A DNA stretch of 34,744 nucleotides, from positions 1 to 34,744 of the forward strand of contig CAXGTB010000001.1 in the NCBI GenBank assembly GCA_964012565.1. The letters are read 5' to 3'. Numbering within the stretch: position 1 is the stretch's first letter; each line of letters starts with the position of its first letter. This document shows, in pieces, positions 21,078 through 29,295 of this stretch. The notes below the pieces were generated by a model. The model had not been told where the DNA came from. It saw nothing but the letters and a program-made list of their open reading frames with translations, and made no database searches. The translations under genes were made by a program, and so were the position numbers. The DNA is from an uncultured euryarchaeote (GTDB taxonomy: Archaea; Thermoplasmatota; Poseidoniia; Poseidoniales; Poseidoniaceae).

Positions 21078-22343
21078 TCACTGAACAGACATAAAACCTG
21101 ATCGGTCATAACCCCATGGTATGGTTGCATCGATACCAATTTTTGCGGTATTTCCGTCATTAAGTCGTGACGGATCGAGGCTAGAACCCTTTTGATTTGA
21201 GAGAATGATTGAGTCTGTATCAGGTTGCCATCTTGTCATCATTGCCCATTCAACTCTAACAGGGTCGGTAATGTCAATATCTTCGTCAACTATTGTTACC
21301 ATCTTCATCGAGCGATGACCATCTAAAGCAGCTTGAATTGCTCTTTTTCCATCACCCTCTTTCTTCACTTTGATTTTGACTACTGCTGCAAGCCAGCCAC
21401 CGCCCCCTTCAGTCATGTGAACATCTAGACATTCACAGACTTCACTAACTGCAGATTTGATTGTTGGTGCCCTAGGTAAACCCATCAGGGTTTTGTGTTC
21501 TGCCTCTGCAGGGATTAATGCGTGAAAAATCGGGTTTGAACGATGGGTAATTCCATCGATTTCTATTACTGGCTCCTGGCGAATGTCATCGACAGTTCCT
21601 GTAATATCCACATATGGGCCTTCATCGTCATTTTCTGTAGTAACTCTTCCCCACATGGCGTATTCAGCATTTGCAGGGACTTGAATTCCGTTTGGTAATG
21701 TCACTAATTCCAAGGGACTGCCATGCACTTTTTCATGAAGTGCCGAAGCGATAGTTAATTCGTCAATATTTGTATCAAATGACATTGCTGCAGCCAGTAA
21801 AACGACTGGATCAGGGGCGTTAATTATTGCTACTTTTACTGAATCCCCTACAGATCTTGCCTCTTTTGTCATCGAATGTAGATGGCGAGGAACAATTCTA
21901 GCCACGAGATGATTATCATCTCTGAGTAGTTGTCTATGAAATGACATGTTTCTGATACCACCATATTCGGCAATAATTACGCTAGATGACATATATCTTC
22001 CACGATCTTCTCTCCAGTGATGAGGAATTGGCAATTTGGTCAATTCGGGTTTATTTTGGACATTTTCTAGGACCGGCCCAAATTCCACAATTTTTGGTTC
22101 TCTTGGATTTTCCATGGCCCACCCGAGTAGGTCAATAAAGTCCTCCGGCTCAATAGATAATGCTGCACATAATCGCGGCCTAGTAAGTAGATTAACTGCG
22201 ATTTTATGACCAGGTGTCTCAACAAGGTTTTCGAATACCAACAAGTCATGTCCTGTCGACTTGGACTTGTCAAAAACCCCATGCAGTATGCTTGTTGGCT
22301 CGTCTATAATTGAAGCCGCACCTAGCAGATCACGGAATGCCAT
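21078..22343 (-). CDS. UbiD-family (prenyl-FMN dependent) decarboxylase; candidate anhydromevalonate-phosphate decarboxylase
   Basis: About 420 aa with overall UbiD-like organisation: MAFRDLL... N-terminus, EYGGIRNMSFHRQ, VDITGTVD and GGGGWLAAVVKI segments. Start set to ATG 22343. The specific substrate is inference. Confidence 0.65.
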   Translation of the reverse strand: MAFRDLLGAASIIDEPTSILHGVFDKSKSTGHDLLVFENLVETPGHKIAVNLLTRPRLCAALSIEPEDFIDLLGWAMENPREPKIVEFGPVLENVQNKPELTKLPIPHHWREDRGRYMSSSVIIAEYGGIRNMSFHRQLLRDDNHLVARIVPRHLHSMTKEARSVGDSVKVAIINAPDPVVLLAAAMSFDTNIDELTIASALHEKVHGSPLELVTLPNGIQVPANAEYAMWGRVTTENDDEGPYVDITGTVDDIRQEPVIEIDGITHRSNPIFHALIPAEAEHKTLMGLPRAPTIKSAVSEVCECLDVHMTEGGGGWLAAVVKIKVKKEGDGKRAIQAALDGHRSMKMVTIVDEDIDITDPVRVEWAMMTRWQPDTDSIILSNQKGSSLDPSRLNDGNTAKIGIDATIPWGYDRSGFMSVQ

Positions 22344-22483
22344 TGCGCCTTCCTGTAGGATTAAAGCCAAGAACATTGGCCTATACTTTTGGCTGTGAGT
22401 GCATCATTTGATGGATACTTTTCAATCGGCATCATGAAATAGGGGGGGTAGGTCGGCAAGTTGCTTCTCTGGAGAGTTTAGAT

Positions 22484-22912
22484 ATGGGTCGTGGGTTGTT
22501 CGCAGGAACTAAGATGGCAAAAGACCGCCAAAAGTTTAGATGGTCTGATCGAAGATACAAGAAGCGTATGCTCAAGTCTAGAGCTAAGCACGACCCACTT
22601 GCAGGTTCAACACAAGCCAAGGGTATCGTTATCGAAAAAGTTGGTATCGAGGCTAAGCAACCTAACTCCGGAATTAGAAAGGCTGTGAAGATTTCACTAA
22701 TCAAGAACGGCAACAAATTAACAGCATTCGCACCAGGTGATGGTGCGATTAACTTCATCGATGAGCACGATGAAGTAATGGTAGAAGGTATCGGTGGACG
22801 CATGGGTCGTTCATACGGAGATATTCCAGGAGTCCGCTACAAGGTGATCCAAGTCAACGGCGTTTCATTAGATGAAATGGTACGTGGACGAAAAGAGAAG
22901 CCAGTTCGATGA
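22484..22912 (+). CDS. rps12: 30S ribosomal protein S12 (uS12)
   Basis: [12 protein letters not shown]...[50 protein letters not shown]...[18 protein letters not shown]. Confidence 0.92.
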
Positions 22913-22927
22913 GATGGAGTGATTGTG

Positions 22928-23557
22928 ATGAGTGATGAAGTCGAAACACAAGAGGAAGAAACACCCGTCGAAGAATCCAAGCCTATTGCTGGGATTGGAA
23001 CTCTGGTTTTTGGAAAATATGACGCAGCAGAAGTCGTCTGCCGTGATCCAGGATTAGCACCTTACATCAATCTCTCAACAGTTGGAGTACCTCACACAGG
23101 TGGACGTCATGCCAATGCATGGTTCGGAAAAGCAAAGCTATCCGTTGTCGAGAGATTCACAAACAAACTAATGCGAACTGGAAAGTACACTGGTAAGAAA
23201 ATGGGCGCTCTAAAGGCATTCGAAAATGCATTAGACTCAATCGCTGAAAGAAGTGGAGAAAACCCACTTCAAGCATTCGTAGATGCAATTTGCCACGCTG
23301 CTCCAATGGAAGAAATCACTCGTATCAAATTCGGGGCAGTTTCACAACCGAAGGCAGTCGATAGTTCTCCTTCTCGAAGACTTGATGTTGCTCTAGCAAA
23401 CCTTGCAAAAGGGGCACAACAAGGAACATCCAAGTCTAAACGTACCTTGACACAATGTATCATCAATGAGCTTACAAAAGCAAGCGTTGGTGATGTAACT
23501 TCATTCGCTGTCTCAAAGAAAGAAGAAGTTCAACGTATCGCAGCAAGCGCAAGATGA
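22928..23557 (+). CDS. rps7: 30S ribosomal protein S7 (uS7) with acidic N-terminal extension
   Basis: LVFGKYD...VERFTNKLMRTGKYTGKK...ITRIKFGAV...RRLDVALANLAKGA. ATG 22928 is preferred over GTG 22919. Confidence 0.9.
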   Translation: MSDEVETQEEETPVEESKPIAGIGTLVFGKYDAAEVVCRDPGLAPYINLSTVGVPHTGGRHANAWFGKAKLSVVERFTNKLMRTGKYTGKKMGALKAFENALDSIAERSGENPLQAFVDAICHAAPMEEITRIKFGAVSQPKAVDSSPSRRLDVALANLAKGAQQGTSKSKRTLTQCIINELTKASVGDVTSFAVSKKEEVQRIAASAR

Positions 23558-23626
23558 TTTTCAAATCAAAGATTTGGCGACCACCTAGCCCCAACAGTCA
23601 ATAACGTTACTCAGTGCGAACCCGTT

Positions 23627-24775
23627 ATGAGTGAGGAGCCACCATACCGAATTAACTGGTTAAATTCTGTGTTCTTAATTGTGACACCAATCTTGGCGAT
23701 AGCAGGAATTATCGGCCACTGGTCTTATTTTGGGCATCCTGGTCTAATTGAATTTTTTGTATTCCTATCGTTTTATTACGCCTGTGGATTGTCAATAACT
23801 GTAGGATATCACAGATTATTCTCACATCGTTCGCACAAAGCTAAATGGCCCCTAGTCCTATTTTACTCGTTTTTCGGAGCGGGTTCGTTTCAAAATTCGA
23901 TACTAGAATGGAGTTCAGATCATAGAAGACATCACAAAATGACCGATTCGGATGAAGACCCATACAGTGCCTCGAAGGGTTTCTGGTATTCCCACATGGG
24001 ATGGATATTGATTGAGGAAGAGAAGTTCGCAAATGATTTTTCAAATGTGAAAGACCTGCAGCAAAGCAAAATAATAATGTGGCAACACAGAAATATTTTC
24101 CTTATAGGTGCTATTTCTGGCTTCCTTTTACCCGCTTTAATTGGATTTCTTTTCGGAGGTATTTCTGCGGCAATAGGTTGTTTCGTCTGGGGTGGACTTG
24201 CAAGAATTGTATTCGTACATCACGGGACATTCTTGATCAATAGTGCTGCTCACATTTGGGGAACTCAACCATATTCTGAAAAGGATTCAAGCCGCGATTC
24301 ATTCTGGTTAGCATTCTTAACGTTCGGTGAAGGATATCATAACTTCCACCACACATTCCAAACCGACTACAGAAATGGACACAAGTGGTACCATGTCGAC
24401 CCTAGCAAATGGTGGATTAAATTATTCAACTATGCGGGATTAAACACAAGGCTGAAATCCACACCAAAGCATTCTATTGAAGTAGCCAAGGTAAATATGC
24501 GCTTCAAAAAGTCTGCAAAGAAATTGAAGGCGAAAAACATCAGCACCAACTCATTCGAATCAAGGTTGACAAATTGCAGAGACAAACTAAGATCATGCCT
24601 TTATGAAATTCAAAAGGCGAAAAGGGAATTGAAGAGTAAAGCCTCTAAGTCGAAAGAGGCAATCAAGATTCGAATAAATGAAATGAAGATTTCTAGTAAG
24701 AAAATTAGAAACGATTTAAGGCAAATATTCAGAGAAATGAAATTTGAATACAAGTCTGCCAAGACGGCTGTATAA
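23627..24775 (+). CDS. Membrane Delta-9 fatty-acid (acyl-CoA/acyl-lipid) desaturase with Lys-rich helical C-terminal extension
   Basis: Three His boxes in Delta-9 (SCD/DesC) context: GYHRLFSH, HRRHHKMTDSDEDPYS, and NSAAHIWGTQPY...GEGYHNFHHTFQTDY. Hydrophobic hairpins flank them. The last ~100 aa are K/R/E-rich. Confidence 0.85.
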   Translation: MSEEPPYRINWLNSVFLIVTPILAIAGIIGHWSYFGHPGLIEFFVFLSFYYACGLSITVGYHRLFSHRSHKAKWPLVLFYSFFGAGSFQNSILEWSSDHRRHHKMTDSDEDPYSASKGFWYSHMGWILIEEEKFANDFSNVKDLQQSKIIMWQHRNIFLIGAISGFLLPALIGFLFGGISAAIGCFVWGGLARIVFVHHGTFLINSAAHIWGTQPYSEKDSSRDSFWLAFLTFGEGYHNFHHTFQTDYRNGHKWYHVDPSKWWIKLFNYAGLNTRLKSTPKHSIEVAKVNMRFKKSAKKLKAKNISTNSFESRLTNCRDKLRSCLYEIQKAKRELKSKASKSKEAIKIRINEMKISSKKIRNDLRQIFREMKFEYKSAKTAV

Positions 24776-24858
24776 TCAGCACACAGCACCCGATTTACAA
24801 CTAAACTTTGTAGTCGATTTGATAAACCCCTTTAAGGTGGCGAGGACAGACGAGAGTC

Positions 24859-24864
24859 AGGTGA
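24859..24864 (+). promoter_or_regulatory. SD (AGGTGA) for the EF-2 gene
   Basis: tcAGGTGAttcaccATG, 6-nt spacing. An A/T-rich ctttaagg element about 30 nt further upstream could be a TATA box, which would give EF-2 its own promoter downstream of the desaturase. Confidence 0.5.
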
Positions 24865-24870
24865 TTCACC

Positions 24871-27078
24871 ATGGGCCGTAAAGAAGACAATATCAAGAAG
24901 GCAACAGAAGTTATGCACATACTCCCACAGATTCGTAATCTGTGCATTGCTGCTCACATCGACCACGGAAAAACAACTCTGTCTGACAACTTGATTGCAG
25001 GCGCAGGAATGATGAGTGAAGATCTAGCTGGAAAAAGCAGGGTTCTAGACTTCGACGAACAAGAAAGTGCTCGTGGAATTACTATCAACGCCGCATCAGC
25101 ATCTATGGTTCACGGTGTAGATGGAACCGATTTCCTGATCAACCTAATCGACACTCCTGGTCACGTTGACTTCGGTGGAGACGTTACCCGTGCTATGCGT
25201 GCTGTTGACGGTTGTTTCATTCTAGCATGTGCGGTTGAAGGACCAATGCCACAGACTGAAACTGTAGTTCGTCAAGCATTGAAAGAGAAGGTTAAGCCTG
25301 TTCTATTCATTAACAAAGTCGACCGACTTATCAACGAATTGAAGGTTACTCCTGAAGACATGTTGAAGCGTTTCGAAGAGACTATCATCAAGGTAAACAA
25401 GTTGATTCGTCAATTCGCTCCAGAAGAGAAGAAGAAAGAGTGGCAAGTAAGTGTACTTGATGGAACAGTAGCATTTGGTTCAGCATACCACAACTGGGGT
25501 ATAACAATTCCATACATGAAGAAATCTGGAGTTTCAATGACTGAGATTTTCGAGTATTGTAACAATGAAGACCAGAAGACACTGGCCCAGAAAGCACCTG
25601 TTCACGAAGTACTTCTAGACATGGCTGTAACCAAACTACCAGGACCTGTTGAGGCGCAACCATACCGTATTCCAAACATCTGGACAGGAGATCTAGAAAC
25701 TCCAATCGGTAAAGCGATGGTTAATTGTGATCCTGAAGCAGAACTTGCTATGATGATAACAAAGATTTGGATGGATCCTCACGCTGGTGAAGTTGCTGTA
25801 GGAAGATTGTACTCCGGTGCAATTAACCAAGGTGAATCTGTTTACGCAATCGGTGCTGCAAAGCCAGAGCGTGTCCAGCAGGTCAGCATGATGGTTGGCG
25901 GCGACAGAATCACTGTACCAAAGGTTGTAGCAGGAAACATTGCAGCAATCACAGGTATTCGTTCAGCTGCTGCTGGTGTAACATTGTCCAGGGACAAAGA
26001 TTTCACACCTTTCGAAGCAATTCGCCACTACTCTGACCCTGTAGTTACAGTAGCTGTTGAGCCAAAGAGTATGAAGGACCTTCCAAAGTTCATTGATGCA
26101 TTAAGATCTCTAGCTAAATCAGACGCATCTTTGCAAGTTAGTACTAACCAAGAAACTGGAGAGGCACTGCTAGCAGGTATGGGAGAACTTCACCTTGAGA
26201 TCACTGTTTACAGACTTGAAGAAGAACAAAATATCAAGGTAAAAGTAAGTCCACCAATCGTTGTATATCGCGAATCTGTTGAAGGCAACAACAAGGGAAG
26301 ATCATTCGAAGGAAAATCACCAAACCGTCACAACAGATTCATGATGGAGATTGAACCTCTTTCCGCAGAAGTAGTCGCTGCTCTAAGAGAAGGTCACTTC
26401 GGTAGTGGAAATGTAAGATCCGGAGATGCAAAAGAAGTTGGAAACAAATTCGGCGAATTCGGAATGGACAAAGACTTGATGCGCAAGATTTACTCTATCA
26501 ATGGAACAAACGTTCTGGTCAATGATACTAAGGGTATCCAAGGACTTCACGAAACCCGTGAGTTGATTATCGAGGCATTCAACGAAGTCTGTAAGAAAGG
26601 ACCTGTAGCAGATGAGCCAGTTATGGGAATGATGGTAAGACTAGTCGATGCAAAACTGCACGAAGATGCAATCCACCGTGGACCTGCTCAAACAATTCCA
26701 GCTGTAAGAAACGCAATCAAGGGTGCTATGCTACGTGCACGCACAGTATTGATGGAACCAATGCAGAGATCTCACGTCAGCGTACCAAACGACTGGCTAG
26801 GACAAGTAACTCGTGAAATCACAAACCGAAGAGGTATCATCGAAGATATGCCATCTGAAGGTGAGGCTACCACAGTTATCGGAACTCTACCTGTTGCTGA
26901 AACATTCGGATTCTCTAACGATATCCGTGCAGCATCACAAGGACGTGCTGTTTGGAACTCTGAAAACATCGGATTTGAGATGCTTCCTCCACAATTGTTC
27001 AACAAGGTCGTAGGCGATATACGAACAAGAAAGGGATTGAAGCCTGAACCAAATCCAGAATCATACTATTCTGATTGA
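24871..27078 (+). CDS. fusA: Translation elongation factor 2 (aEF-2)
   Basis: G1 AHIDHGKTTL, G3 DTPGH, G4 NKVD. Diphthamide-site loop HEDAIHRGPAQ. SD AGGTGA at 24859-24864. Confidence 0.95.
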   Translation: MGRKEDNIKKATEVMHILPQIRNLCIAAHIDHGKTTLSDNLIAGAGMMSEDLAGKSRVLDFDEQESARGITINAASASMVHGVDGTDFLINLIDTPGHVDFGGDVTRAMRAVDGCFILACAVEGPMPQTETVVRQALKEKVKPVLFINKVDRLINELKVTPEDMLKRFEETIIKVNKLIRQFAPEEKKKEWQVSVLDGTVAFGSAYHNWGITIPYMKKSGVSMTEIFEYCNNEDQKTLAQKAPVHEVLLDMAVTKLPGPVEAQPYRIPNIWTGDLETPIGKAMVNCDPEAELAMMITKIWMDPHAGEVAVGRLYSGAINQGESVYAIGAAKPERVQQVSMMVGGDRITVPKVVAGNIAAITGIRSAAAGVTLSRDKDFTPFEAIRHYSDPVVTVAVEPKSMKDLPKFIDALRSLAKSDASLQVSTNQETGEALLAGMGELHLEITVYRLEEEQNIKVKVSPPIVVYRESVEGNNKGRSFEGKSPNRHNRFMMEIEPLSAEVVAALREGHFGSGNVRSGDAKEVGNKFGEFGMDKDLMRKIYSINGTNVLVNDTKGIQGLHETRELIIEAFNEVCKKGPVADEPVMGMMVRLVDAKLHEDAIHRGPAQTIPAVRNAIKGAMLRARTVLMEPMQRSHVSVPNDWLGQVTREITNRRGIIEDMPSEGEATTVIGTLPVAETFGFSNDIRAASQGRAVWNSENIGFEMLPPQLFNKVVGDIRTRKGLKPEPNPESYYSD

Positions 27079-27114
27079 ATCAAATGATTTAATTTGCCGC
27101 AAGAAGGGAAATTT

Positions 27115-27546
27115 ATGGGTAGATTGTTGGGGATTTTTTCCTCCAATGGTGGAGTTCCCAAACTTCCAATAGAATCCGCACAAATTGACTCTAACGGAAT
27201 AATTGGTGACAGTTGTAACAATAAGAAGCACCATGGCGGGCCTATGAAGGCAATTTGTGTTTTGGAGAACGAACTTCTAGTAAAATTACAATCTGAAGGT
27301 CATCCAATCCAAGCTGGCTCAACTGGAGAAAATATCCTGGTTGAGGATTATAATTTGGAAGTTGGAAAGGTGTTTGATGTAGGTGAAGTTAGGCTCGAGG
27401 TTGTGTCTGATGCAACACCTTGTTGGAAAATCGCAGATTCATTTACAGAAGGAGAATATCACCGAATGTCAAATGAAAAACATCCCGGTGACACCAGATG
27501 GTATTGCAGGGTATTGAAAGAGGGCTCAATCAGAATATCCGATTGA
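27115..27546 (+). CDS. MOSC-domain protein
   Basis: HHGGPMKAICVLE...GSTGENILVE...VRLEVVSDATPCWKI, with the conserved MOSC Cys context. ATG 27115 is preferred over TTG 27094. Confidence 0.65.
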   Translation: MGRLLGIFSSNGGVPKLPIESAQIDSNGIIGDSCNNKKHHGGPMKAICVLENELLVKLQSEGHPIQAGSTGENILVEDYNLEVGKVFDVGEVRLEVVSDATPCWKIADSFTEGEYHRMSNEKHPGDTRWYCRVLKEGSIRISD

Positions 27547-29260
27547 GTTGGTAATCTGTTAACTCTCGCAATGCTCTTAGTGCTGGGCTTTCAACCAAAC
27601 GATCTAAGCAATCATGTGCTTTTCTATGATACGCCTCTGCCTTAGACTTAGCATATTCAATTGAACCTAAATCATGTAATGCTTGATGTCCTAGAGCAAC
27701 TTGCTCTGCAGTCACATTTTCACCTTTACCTAGCACAGCGAGTAAATCATCCTTTGATTGTGAAGAAGGCTGTCTTAGGGCATGAATTACCATAAGAGTT
27801 CTTTTTCCTTGAGCCACATCACTTCCACTAGGTTTTCCAAGTGTATCTGTATCTGACATCACGTCAATTATATCGTCCATTAACTGGAAACACAACCCTA
27901 GGGCTAGTCCCCAATCATGCATGCATTGAATTATTTCTTTGTCAGCTCCAGCAAGATGTGAACCAACCTCTGCACAAGTAAGGAACATTGCTGCAGTTTT
28001 ACCATGAATCATCTCAGTATATTCTTCTTCTGAAACTACTTCTCTAGATTCAAATTCGATATCTAACTGTTGACCTTCACTACACTTCCTAACCATTCTA
28101 CCAATTCTTTTCACCAAGAATGGAAGGAGCGCAGGTTCAATCCCCTCTGCAACTGCCATTGCCTCAAACGCAATTGCTAGCATTGCATCACCGGCATTAA
28201 TTGCTGTAGGCAAATCATAGGCCTTGTGAACTGCTGGGCGACCACGACGTACATCATCATCATCCATAATATCGTCATGAACTAAAGTAAAGTTGTGAAT
28301 AATTTCAATAGCAGCACCTACATCTAAAAGTCCTGAATGGGTATCTCCAACAGCTTTAGCCACTAACCATGGTAGTGTCGCACGTAGTCTCTTCCCTCCA
28401 CCTTCCAGTAGATGCATCATCGCACCAGATAATCGGTCTAGTTTTGTGTGAGTTAGAGCACGTTCAATTCTCTGTTCCACCAAATCTTTGACTTCACCAA
28501 TGCTAATTTCCAATCCTGCACCTTTTGCTGATGGAAGTAAATGTGAGACATCACCCATATCGTGAATCAGATCATCAGGCTTTGTACATCCAGGTCTCCA
28601 CCAGTCATCGGTCATTATTCGAGCCGCTATACATCTAAACCAAGGAGCAATGATGTTGTTGTCATCATCGGCAACAAGCATTTCTTCTAACTCATCTTTA
28701 GAAACCCACTTGATTTCTTCTACCTCGTTTGCATTTGGATTTACGTCCACATCAACATGGATGACTAAACAGTGATCGATCTCTCTCTCAATCCACTCCT
28801 CATCTTGTCGAGCTTGGTATCTCATTTTTGTAACAAAATCAAACTTTTCAATCGGGACTTGCGATGGGTGTATTCCTAATTCTTGTTCGAGTTTCCTTAT
28901 TGCCGCTCTTTTTACACCAAGTGCATCTTTCAATTCTAGTTCATCTTCAGAATATAGGGGGTGAGAGCAACATGAATTTGCCCAAACACCTGGGAAAGTA
29001 ATCTTGTGTGATGCTCTTTTTTGAAGCAATAAGCGACCTGATAAATCAAACAGAAGGACACTAAAGGCACGATGATATTTGCCTTCACCATAGTGACTAT
29101 TGAACTTGGAAATCGGACCAATAACCTCGTCGTTTTCTTCAACTTGAATCACGGCTTCAGACATTAGTGATTCTTGTATTGAATCCGAACCTTCCAGAGC
29201 GTGAGATGCATCCGAGTCCATTTGTATGGTTGGAACATCCTCTATCCCATATCCAGTCAT
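27530..29260 (-). CDS. Fusion protein: type-1 isopentenyl-diphosphate isomerase (Nudix) + short-chain trans-prenyl diphosphate (GGPP-type) synthase
   Basis: N-terminal half: YHRAFSVLLFD...LLLQKRASHKITFPGVWANSCCSHP...REIDHCLV...EVEEIKWVS (IDI1). C-terminal half: FARM LVHDDIMDDDDVRRGRP with Phe at -5, and SARM FQLMDDIIDV. It is a single uninterrupted frame. The ORF opens at GTG 29275; ATG 29260 is preceded by GGTGAG. Confidence 0.85.
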   Translation of the reverse strand: MTGYGIEDVPTIQMDSDASHALEGSDSIQESLMSEAVIQVEENDEVIGPISKFNSHYGEGKYHRAFSVLLFDLSGRLLLQKRASHKITFPGVWANSCCSHPLYSEDELELKDALGVKRAAIRKLEQELGIHPSQVPIEKFDFVTKMRYQARQDEEWIEREIDHCLVIHVDVDVNPNANEVEEIKWVSKDELEEMLVADDDNNIIAPWFRCIAARIMTDDWWRPGCTKPDDLIHDMGDVSHLLPSAKGAGLEISIGEVKDLVEQRIERALTHTKLDRLSGAMMHLLEGGGKRLRATLPWLVAKAVGDTHSGLLDVGAAIEIIHNFTLVHDDIMDDDDVRRGRPAVHKAYDLPTAINAGDAMLAIAFEAMAVAEGIEPALLPFLVKRIGRMVRKCSEGQQLDIEFESREVVSEEEYTEMIHGKTAAMFLTCAEVGSHLAGADKEIIQCMHDWGLALGLCFQLMDDIIDVMSDTDTLGKPSGSDVAQGKRTLMVIHALRQPSSQSKDDLLAVLGKGENVTAEQVALGHQALHDLGSIEYAKSKAEAYHRKAHDCLDRLVESPALRALRELTDYQLNRIF

Positions 29261-29295
29261 AGACTCACCATGCACTCGGTTTCGCGCCGACTACA

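Follow-up and report, generated by a model that had tools for sequence, protein, structure and literature searches.

The 34,744-nt window analysed here, the whole stretch of contig CAXGTB010000001.1 from position 1 to 34,744, belongs to a metagenome-assembled genome (MAG) of the archaeal order Poseidoniales (Marine Group II). The MAG comprises 272 contigs and is 87% complete, with an estimated contamination of 2.9%. In the surface ocean, the uncultured Marine Group II rank with the most abundant archaeal groups. On the forward strand of the window, an open reading frame (ORF) for an acyl desaturase of the membrane di-iron SCD/DesA type lies between the genes for ribosomal protein S7 and elongation factor 2 (EF-2), and this desaturase is the subject of our analysis. 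The gene string opens with rps12 (ribosomal protein S12/S23; 22484-22912; Pfam PF00164, 147.7 bits), the first gene of the S12-S7 unit, which is followed by rps7 (ribosomal protein S7/S5e; 22919-23557; Pfam PF00177, 114.6 bits). The desaturase ORF of 382 residues occupies 23627-24775, and the EF-2 gene (aEF-2, fusA-type), recognised by five EF-G/EF-2 Pfam domains, extends from 24871 to 27078. Short spacers separate the desaturase from its neighbours, 69 bp on the rps7 side (23558-23626) and 95 bp on the EF-2 side (24776-24870). A gene for UbiD lies on the opposite strand at 21078-22376. An earlier note on this DNA, made from the sequence alone, had described a desaturase with the boxes HRLFSH, HRRHH and HNFHH between S7 and EF-2, on the same strand and with spacers of 69 and 95 bp, and we found exactly this arrangement.

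The same note had read the protein as a desaturase of the bacterial/eukaryotic type, which was borne out by its Pfam profile, its match to SCD1 and its predicted fold. The protein scored 69.2 bits against Pfam FA_desaturase (PF00487), above the cut-off of 29.7, and its sole relatives among solved structures were mouse SCD1 (E-value of 7e-47) and human SCD1 (E-value of 3e-46), aligned over residues 5-283. An AlphaFold2 model with 56 homologues as input had a pLDDT of 95.4 and a pTM of 0.90. The top Foldseek matches of this predicted structure were the SCD1 entries 4zyo, 4ymk and 6wf2 (E-value ~1e-16, ~30% identity), with a target-normalised TM of 0.79-0.85 and an rmsd of ~3 Å. All expected metal ligands are in place. 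His box 1, HRLFSH, covers residues 62-67 (23810-23827; H62 and H67), His box 2, HRRHH, residues 99-103 (23921-23935; H99, H102 and H103) and His box 3, HNFHH, residues 238-242 (24338-24352; H238, H241 and H242), giving the spacings HX4H, HX2HH and HX2HH. A further motif, NSAAH at residues 205-209 (24239-24253; N205 and H209), aligns with the identical NSAAH of mouse SCD1, where this motif of the fourth membrane helix provides further metal ligands. Each of these motifs retains its ligands, all nine His and the Asn, in every one of the 56 aligned homologues. The His boxes, NSAAH, profile score and predicted SCD1 fold, which is a helical bundle in the membrane under a cytosolic cap with the di-metal site, agree with the SCD/Ole1/DesC class of first desaturases, and they support the prediction of a bacterial/eukaryotic-type first (Delta-9-type) acyl desaturase. 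In public records the protein goes by 'acyl-CoA desaturase' or by 'stearoyl-CoA desaturase (delta-9)'; its regiospecificity, substrate carrier and electron donor we infer.

The catalytic core comprises residues 1-285 (23627-24481) and is followed by a Lys-rich tail of ~97 residues (residues 286-382; 24482-24772), with predicted helices at 281-301, 308-337 and 340-381. The tail has a pLDDT of 90-98 in the AlphaFold2 model, and Foldseek gave no informative match for it. The ~100-residue Lys-rich helical tail that the earlier note pointed out is thus present and predicted to be helical, but it is not an archaeal addition: bacterial homologues of ~366-390 residues carry a tail of the same length, position and character, weakly conserved in sequence across the 56-sequence alignment. 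Our guess is that it might serve as a cytosolic docking or oligomerisation element.

Comparison with known systems places the protein closest to a tailed bacterial subfamily of DesA-like desaturases. With SCD1 (4YMK, 6WF2 and 4ZYO) and yeast Ole1 it has the fold and the His/Asn ligands in common, as judged from the SCD1 comparison; unlike these enzymes, it has no cytochrome b5 domain and carries the extra three-helix Lys-rich tail. Pseudomonas-type DesA (NF049918) belongs to the same superfamily and is of similar length, but the match is partial (residues 55-369) and the window protein is not a member of that equivalog. Homologues of ~366-390 residues from Shewanella species other than S. oneidensis are 39-41% identical over their full length, tail included, and share the three His boxes, NSAAH and a C-terminal helical tail of ~95 residues. 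The comparison was made with these other species and not with S. oneidensis DesA (SO0197) itself, which has been genetically shown to supply unsaturated fatty acids in an aerobic pathway (PMC4273635). S. oneidensis DesA is 41% identical to the desaturase domain of Ole1, and strains mutated in both fabA and desA are dependent on oleate (PMC4273635). The length and the charged helical extension typical of the tailed subfamily are both found in the window protein, while the TetR neighbour is not. Gammaproteobacterial genes of this subfamily adjoin a FabR-like TetR gene (15 loci), those of six or more Shewanella species included, whereas the archaeal desaturase loci have no FabR/DesT-type TetR neighbour and the archaeal copies form a clade of their own, apart from the gammaproteobacterial DesA-like genes.

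This clade was recovered in an unrooted IQ-TREE phylogeny of 89 rows (LG+C20 PMSF), in which all 36 sampled Poseidoniales copies fell on one side of a single branch (support 100/99, 100% of bootstrap trees). On the opposite side were Verrucomicrobiota, Bdellovibrionota, Gammaproteobacteria and allies, and Elusimicrobiota. A quick tree of 137 rows gave 80-89% support for the archaeal clade, lower because of long unnamed rows, and is superseded by the 89-row tree. Labelling the families of the order f1, f2 and f3 and its genera g1 and so on, with g1 the genus of the window, we found f2 basal within the archaeal clade. Copies of f1 and f3 that lie between S7 and EF-2 grouped loosely (83/62), and a second f1 lineage consisted of copies in other contexts. 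The simplest reading of this tree would be a single old acquisition. The nearest non-archaeal relatives are bacterial, with 37-44% identity, which makes a bacterial origin by horizontal transfer likely; the family as a whole, overwhelmingly bacterial and eukaryotic, likewise makes a bacterial donor likely.

Among 301 genomes of the order, 99 yielded the desaturase (f1, 82/149; f2, 2/2; f3, 14/149), as did 27 of 66 high-quality genomes and 27 of 41 relatives. Its presence tracks genus: g14 (19/19), g15 (8/8) and g1 (14/17) have it, and it was not found in g13 (0/43) or in the small-genome f3 genera g5, g7, g8, g10, g25 and g26. Beyond the order, every version detected was distant and tail-less, with ~300-340 residues and 31-35% identity to the window protein. 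These come from a sister family of the class (f4; genomes G549-G583; 13/32 in genus g29) and from the Thermoplasmatota families f10, f28 and f29, and they form a far, separate clade on the tree. Given these tail-less copies in other Thermoplasmatota, acyl desaturases are less rare in archaea than is usually assumed. One complete, one-contig g12 genome carries the desaturase in two pieces (G041:C1:825630-826633), which correspond to residues 5-85 and 142-369 and leave out the part that holds the second His box. This copy is probably a pseudogene in the course of decay.

The position between S7 and EF-2 proved to be a variable slot. The string of UbiD on the opposite strand followed by S12, S7, desaturase and EF-2 occurs in g1, g16, g20 and part of g12, as well as in the f3 genera g3, g9, g11 and g23; across same-genus loci, rps7 is 88-97% and EF-2 87-99% identical. 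The S7-desaturase-EF-2 arrangement was present in more than 30 related genomes from two families, so that the earlier note's picture of an unusual insertion into a conserved S12-S7-EF-2 string did not survive the synteny comparison. Three g1 species (G001, G015 and G124) have no desaturase in an S7-EF-2 gap of 108-141 nt, and five high-quality f3 genomes likewise have S7 and EF-2 without it, the gaps across these and the three g1 species being 100-160 nt. In the g13 genome G045 (locus L150), a gap of 526 nt holds a different ORF of 129 residues (MTSTVFVKF...) with no Pfam match. The desaturase of g14, g15, g17, g19, g22, f2 and part of g12 resides in other, genus-specific neighbourhoods. Two independent g16 MAGs (L120, genome G092; L036, UBA60) have the UbiD-S12-S7 block inverted while desaturase and EF-2 stay together; here UbiD, desaturase and EF-2 share a strand and S7 is no longer upstream. 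Copies from g12 (L127, genome G200; L128, genome G257) and from a further MAG (L032) are 68-70% identical to the window's and nest within the g1 clade. They lie in a non-ribosomal context with the upstream ACCCCAAnGGTCAATAG box retained, which has the appearance of a transfer or a relocation inside the order. There is nothing special about the S7-EF-2 position as such, a permissive gap that separates two putative transcription units.

These comparisons also bear on whether the gene could owe its place to a chimeric assembly or to contaminating bacterial DNA in this part of the contig. A MAG of 272 contigs with 2.9% estimated contamination might raise that suspicion, but the junctions of the desaturase with S7 and with EF-2 were both seen again in dozens of assemblies made independently, some of them on single contigs of 0.17-1.5 Mb, and the identical protein is on record from several sources on contigs of up to 228 kb. 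We regard an assembly chimera as ruled out and give an artefact of either kind a negligible chance.

Composition and selection speak to the age of the gene. Its GC content of 0.392 is at the 3rd percentile of 954 genes, and its GC3 is slightly high (94th percentile). We tentatively attribute the low GC to a composition rich in Lys and in Phe/Ile. Synonymous codon choice is typical (54th percentile), and we rejected composition as a mark of recent transfer. Between close species pairs, dN/dS was 0.03-0.07 for the whole gene, with the core at 0.006-0.06 and the tail at 0.04-0.17. Together with the codon usage, this indicates a gene of native style that is maintained by strong purifying selection.

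The earlier note had proposed that the desaturase was a horizontal insertion into the S12-S7-EF-2 operon, possibly expressed with the translation genes. A recent event of this kind would fit the common strand and the 69- and 95-bp spacers, neither of which has a terminator-like site, as well as the bacterial affinity of the closest non-archaeal relatives and the low GC percentile. Against it stand an arrangement shared by over 30 genomes from two families, an order-specific clade with support of 100/99 and typical codon usage. The reading is contradicted on age, and as a whole, co-transcription included, we consider it very unlikely. Of the horizontal acquisition suggested earlier, the probable bacterial origin stands, but a recent date does not: a recurrent position, typical codons and a single archaeal clade are largely what the note itself had named as speaking against its proposal.

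The co-transcription part of that proposal was examined through the signals in the spacers. Upstream of the desaturase, a conserved box AACAGTCAATAA (23593-23604, forward strand), whose GTCAATAA part lies at -30 to -23 of the ATG, is kept in 80% or more of the 20 spacers compared within the genus. In general form the box reads A(A/C)nGTCAA(A/T)A at about -33 to -22, and versions of it precede the desaturase in further genera, in f3 and at relocated sites. No Shine-Dalgarno sequence was found before the desaturase ATG. Across the genome, TATA-like heptamers are most frequent at -30 relative to the start codon, a leaderless pattern that the position of the desaturase box matches, and Shine-Dalgarno-like motifs peak at -15 to -6 in a minority of genes. 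The desaturase box is, in our inference, a putative TATA-like promoter element of a leaderless transcript.

EF-2 has signals of its own. A promoter-like block AGTCGATTTGATAAACCCCTT..GGTGGC (24812-24841, forward strand), with TTTGATAA at -53 to -46, is nearly invariant in 20 same-genus loci, and a Shine-Dalgarno-like GGTGAT (24860-24865, forward strand) lies 5 nt 5' of the EF-2 start. The block keeps a constant distance from the ATG in both families, with or without the desaturase, and takes the form TTTATGAACC..GGTCGCC in f3. A comparable layout is seen upstream of rps12, with a TATA-like TCATGAAAT at 22432-22440 and GGTCGGC at 22451-22457. Directly after the desaturase stop lies a conserved stretch, AATCAGCACACAGCAC (24776-24800); same-genus genomes without the desaturase retain a related CACAGTAA.GCGATT 5' of the EF-2 promoter-like block. 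A scan for sigma-70 promoters and intrinsic terminators gave nothing above shuffled expectation in the spacers, although such a bacterial-style scan is ill-suited to archaea. The window holds no Rfam family, the desaturase-EF-2 spacer folds no better than its shuffles (z 0.14), and the published transcript tables in the supplements of PMC9723583 have no entry for the desaturase.

Because the EF-2 block is independent of the desaturase and the desaturase keeps its box in every context, copies in other places included, co-expression of the desaturase with the translation genes is not favoured. The inverted g16 loci, where S7 is not upstream of desaturase and EF-2, also argue against co-transcription. 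The simplest reading of these signals would be three units: rps12-rps7, a leaderless desaturase and EF-2.

Beyond EF-2, the forward strand encodes a stand-alone MOSC-domain protein of 150 residues immediately 3' of the EF-2 gene (27094-27546), which is kept in the window's genus and in part of its family with 41-68% identity. On the opposite strand, 27530-29275 encodes a 581-residue fusion of a NUDIX-type isopentenyl-diphosphate isomerase and a polyprenyl synthase (IDI-GGPPS). The fusion is convergent to EF-2 throughout the order, with 47-89% identity in the loci checked.

Such isoprenoid genes nearby, the IDI-GGPPS fusion at 27530-29275 and UbiD at 21078-22376, could hint at a substrate other than an ordinary fatty acyl chain, be it an isoprenoid or alkyl chain or a product of the PfaA-like synthase described below (a secondary lipid or a hydrocarbon precursor). 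The FA_desaturase superfamily also includes hydroxylases and ketolases, the tail and the electron donor are uncharacterised, and the same genome encodes an AlkB-like member. AlkB alkane 1-monooxygenase belongs to the same Pfam superfamily (PF00487) as the desaturase, but none of the AlkB motifs HE[LM]xHK, EHxxGHH, NYxEHYG[LM] and LQRHSDHH was found in the window protein. A second PF00487 protein of 340 residues (contig C34, 649-1671; locus L141) has HESGHR, EHNHGHH and NYMQHYGL. As the AlkB motifs sit in the contig C34 gene, we rejected the idea that the desaturase is the 'alkB' reported in Marine Group II/III MAGs (bioRxiv 10.1101/2025.10.24.684404); the contig C34 gene is probably that 'alkB'. 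An unusual substrate of the desaturase is further opposed by its 37-44% full-length identity to the bacterial tailed subfamily, including the Shewanella homologues, by the genetic evidence that S. oneidensis DesA (SO0197) supplies unsaturated fatty acids (PMC4273635), by the predicted SCD1 fold with all ligands conserved and by the loss of the linkage to isoprenoid genes wherever the desaturase lies elsewhere. We consider such a substrate highly improbable.

The genome offers a plausible source of acyl chains. Three adjacent genes on another contig (C8, 6700-16871; locus L158) encode a FabI-like enoyl reductase, a PfaA-like synthase of 2907 residues and a phosphopantetheinyl transferase. The synthase has the domain order KS-AT-KS-ACPx3-KR-DH, and among NCBIfam models it matches PfaA best, scoring 935 bits against a cut-off of 1010. 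Bacterial contamination of the contig was considered and rejected, as it also carries an archaeal TBP gene and as 81 of 121 genomes of the order have the synthase (f1, 58/59; f2, 2/2; f3, 20/59). In a hand tally over two genome listings, the desaturase occurred in 48 of the 81 genomes with this megasynthase, versus 0 of the 40 without it. The genome also encodes a PlsC-type acyltransferase.

A set of 'mixed membrane' genes in Marine Group II has been described by Rinke et al. 2019 (PMC6461757) and reportedly by Villanueva et al. 2017. The desaturase, from the same group of organisms, fits beside the G3P dehydrogenase, plsC and bacterial-like fatty-acid genes of that set. Marine Group II MAGs have these genes and no G1P dehydrogenase, and a mixed membrane has been proposed for the group from its lipid genes (PMC6461757, PMC7852524). 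The surprise that the earlier note saw in an archaeal acyl desaturase is smaller than it supposed, as fatty-acid and G3P genes of Marine Group II were already known (PMC6461757, PMC7852524). The literature that we searched, including the supplements of PMC6461757, held no mention of the desaturase or the PfaA-like synthase in these archaea and no report of a characterised archaeal enzyme of this desaturase class.

Genes for fatty-acid degradation occur in every Poseidoniales genus, and these archaea are believed to feed on lipids (PMC6461757), which raises the question of whether the desaturase instead acts on scavenged exogenous acyl-CoA, for assimilation or turnover rather than for self-built lipids. 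The nearest solved relatives do use acyl-CoA, the MAG has no detected PlsY and no clear GpsA, and g13 has the megasynthase without the desaturase. Yet beta-oxidation has no desaturation step, none of the 40 genomes without the megasynthase was found to have the desaturase, a PlsC-type acyltransferase is present, and the strong purifying selection, tail included, fits a housekeeping membrane role. On balance, we think that scavenging as the purpose of the enzyme is unlikely.

We consider it probable that the gene is an old, order-specific and autonomous desaturase of the SCD/DesA type, acquired once and supplying unsaturated acyl chains for ester-type lipids. The ORF product would be an O2-dependent membrane di-iron desaturase of the SCD/Ole1 type, from the tailed bacterial subfamily that includes the Shewanella homologues, and would most likely give saturated acyl chains of C16/C18 their first cis double bond (Delta-9-type). 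The Poseidoniales would have acquired it in a single ancient event, probably from a bacterial source, after which it would have been passed on by descent, with moves inside the order and repeated losses. In the window, it would occupy the gap between the rps12-rps7 and EF-2 units and be expressed from its own promoter-like box as a leaderless mRNA. The acyl chains could come from the PfaA-like megasynthase, with its FabI-like reductase and phosphopantetheinyl transferase, or from external uptake, and the PlsC-type acyltransferase would attach them. The link between desaturase and megasynthase and the promoter function of the box are suggested by gene content and sequence conservation.

Several observations weigh against this reading of an old desaturase serving ester-type lipids. 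The only specific model, NCBIfam NF049918 (DesA_fam_desat), failed on the protein with 85.2 bits against a cut-off of 400. A Cyt-b5 domain was found neither in the protein nor in the 87%-complete genome, and no redox gene is conserved beside the desaturase in archaeal or bacterial neighbourhoods, a survey that did not extend to ferredoxins. The branching order of the bacterial clades, and hence the sister group, is unsettled, and an unrooted tree names no donor. With a terminator-like site in neither spacer, read-through from rps7 is possible. PlsY was not found in the 87%-complete MAG, nor was a clear GpsA, the sole PF01210 match being weak. The 40 genomes without the megasynthase amount to 39 from six f3 genera plus one from g13 and thus to few independent events, and whole genera have the megasynthase without the desaturase (g13, 0/43).

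The value of the find lies in the lipid question, as the desaturase, the PfaA-like synthase and PlsC together make a testable acyl-lipid route in an archaeon. We put forward tentatively, as a possibility short of an expectation, that Poseidoniales use the PfaA-like type I synthase (with a trans-acting FabI-like reductase and a phosphopantetheinyl transferase) to build saturated acyl chains of their own, desaturate them aerobically with this DesA/SCD-type enzyme and esterify them to glycerol-3-phosphate via PlsC. A strongly constrained, order-wide desaturase suggests that acyl chains may be maintained and tuned and not merely burnt as food. The 'mixed membrane' hypothesis gains a concrete, clonable gene and a marker in the form of monoenoic acyl lipids. 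If the proposed route is true, abundant archaea of the ocean would naturally have fatty-acyl, bacterial-type membrane lipids whose fluidity is tuned by O2-dependent desaturation, and the lipid divide would have a living exception in the Poseidoniales.

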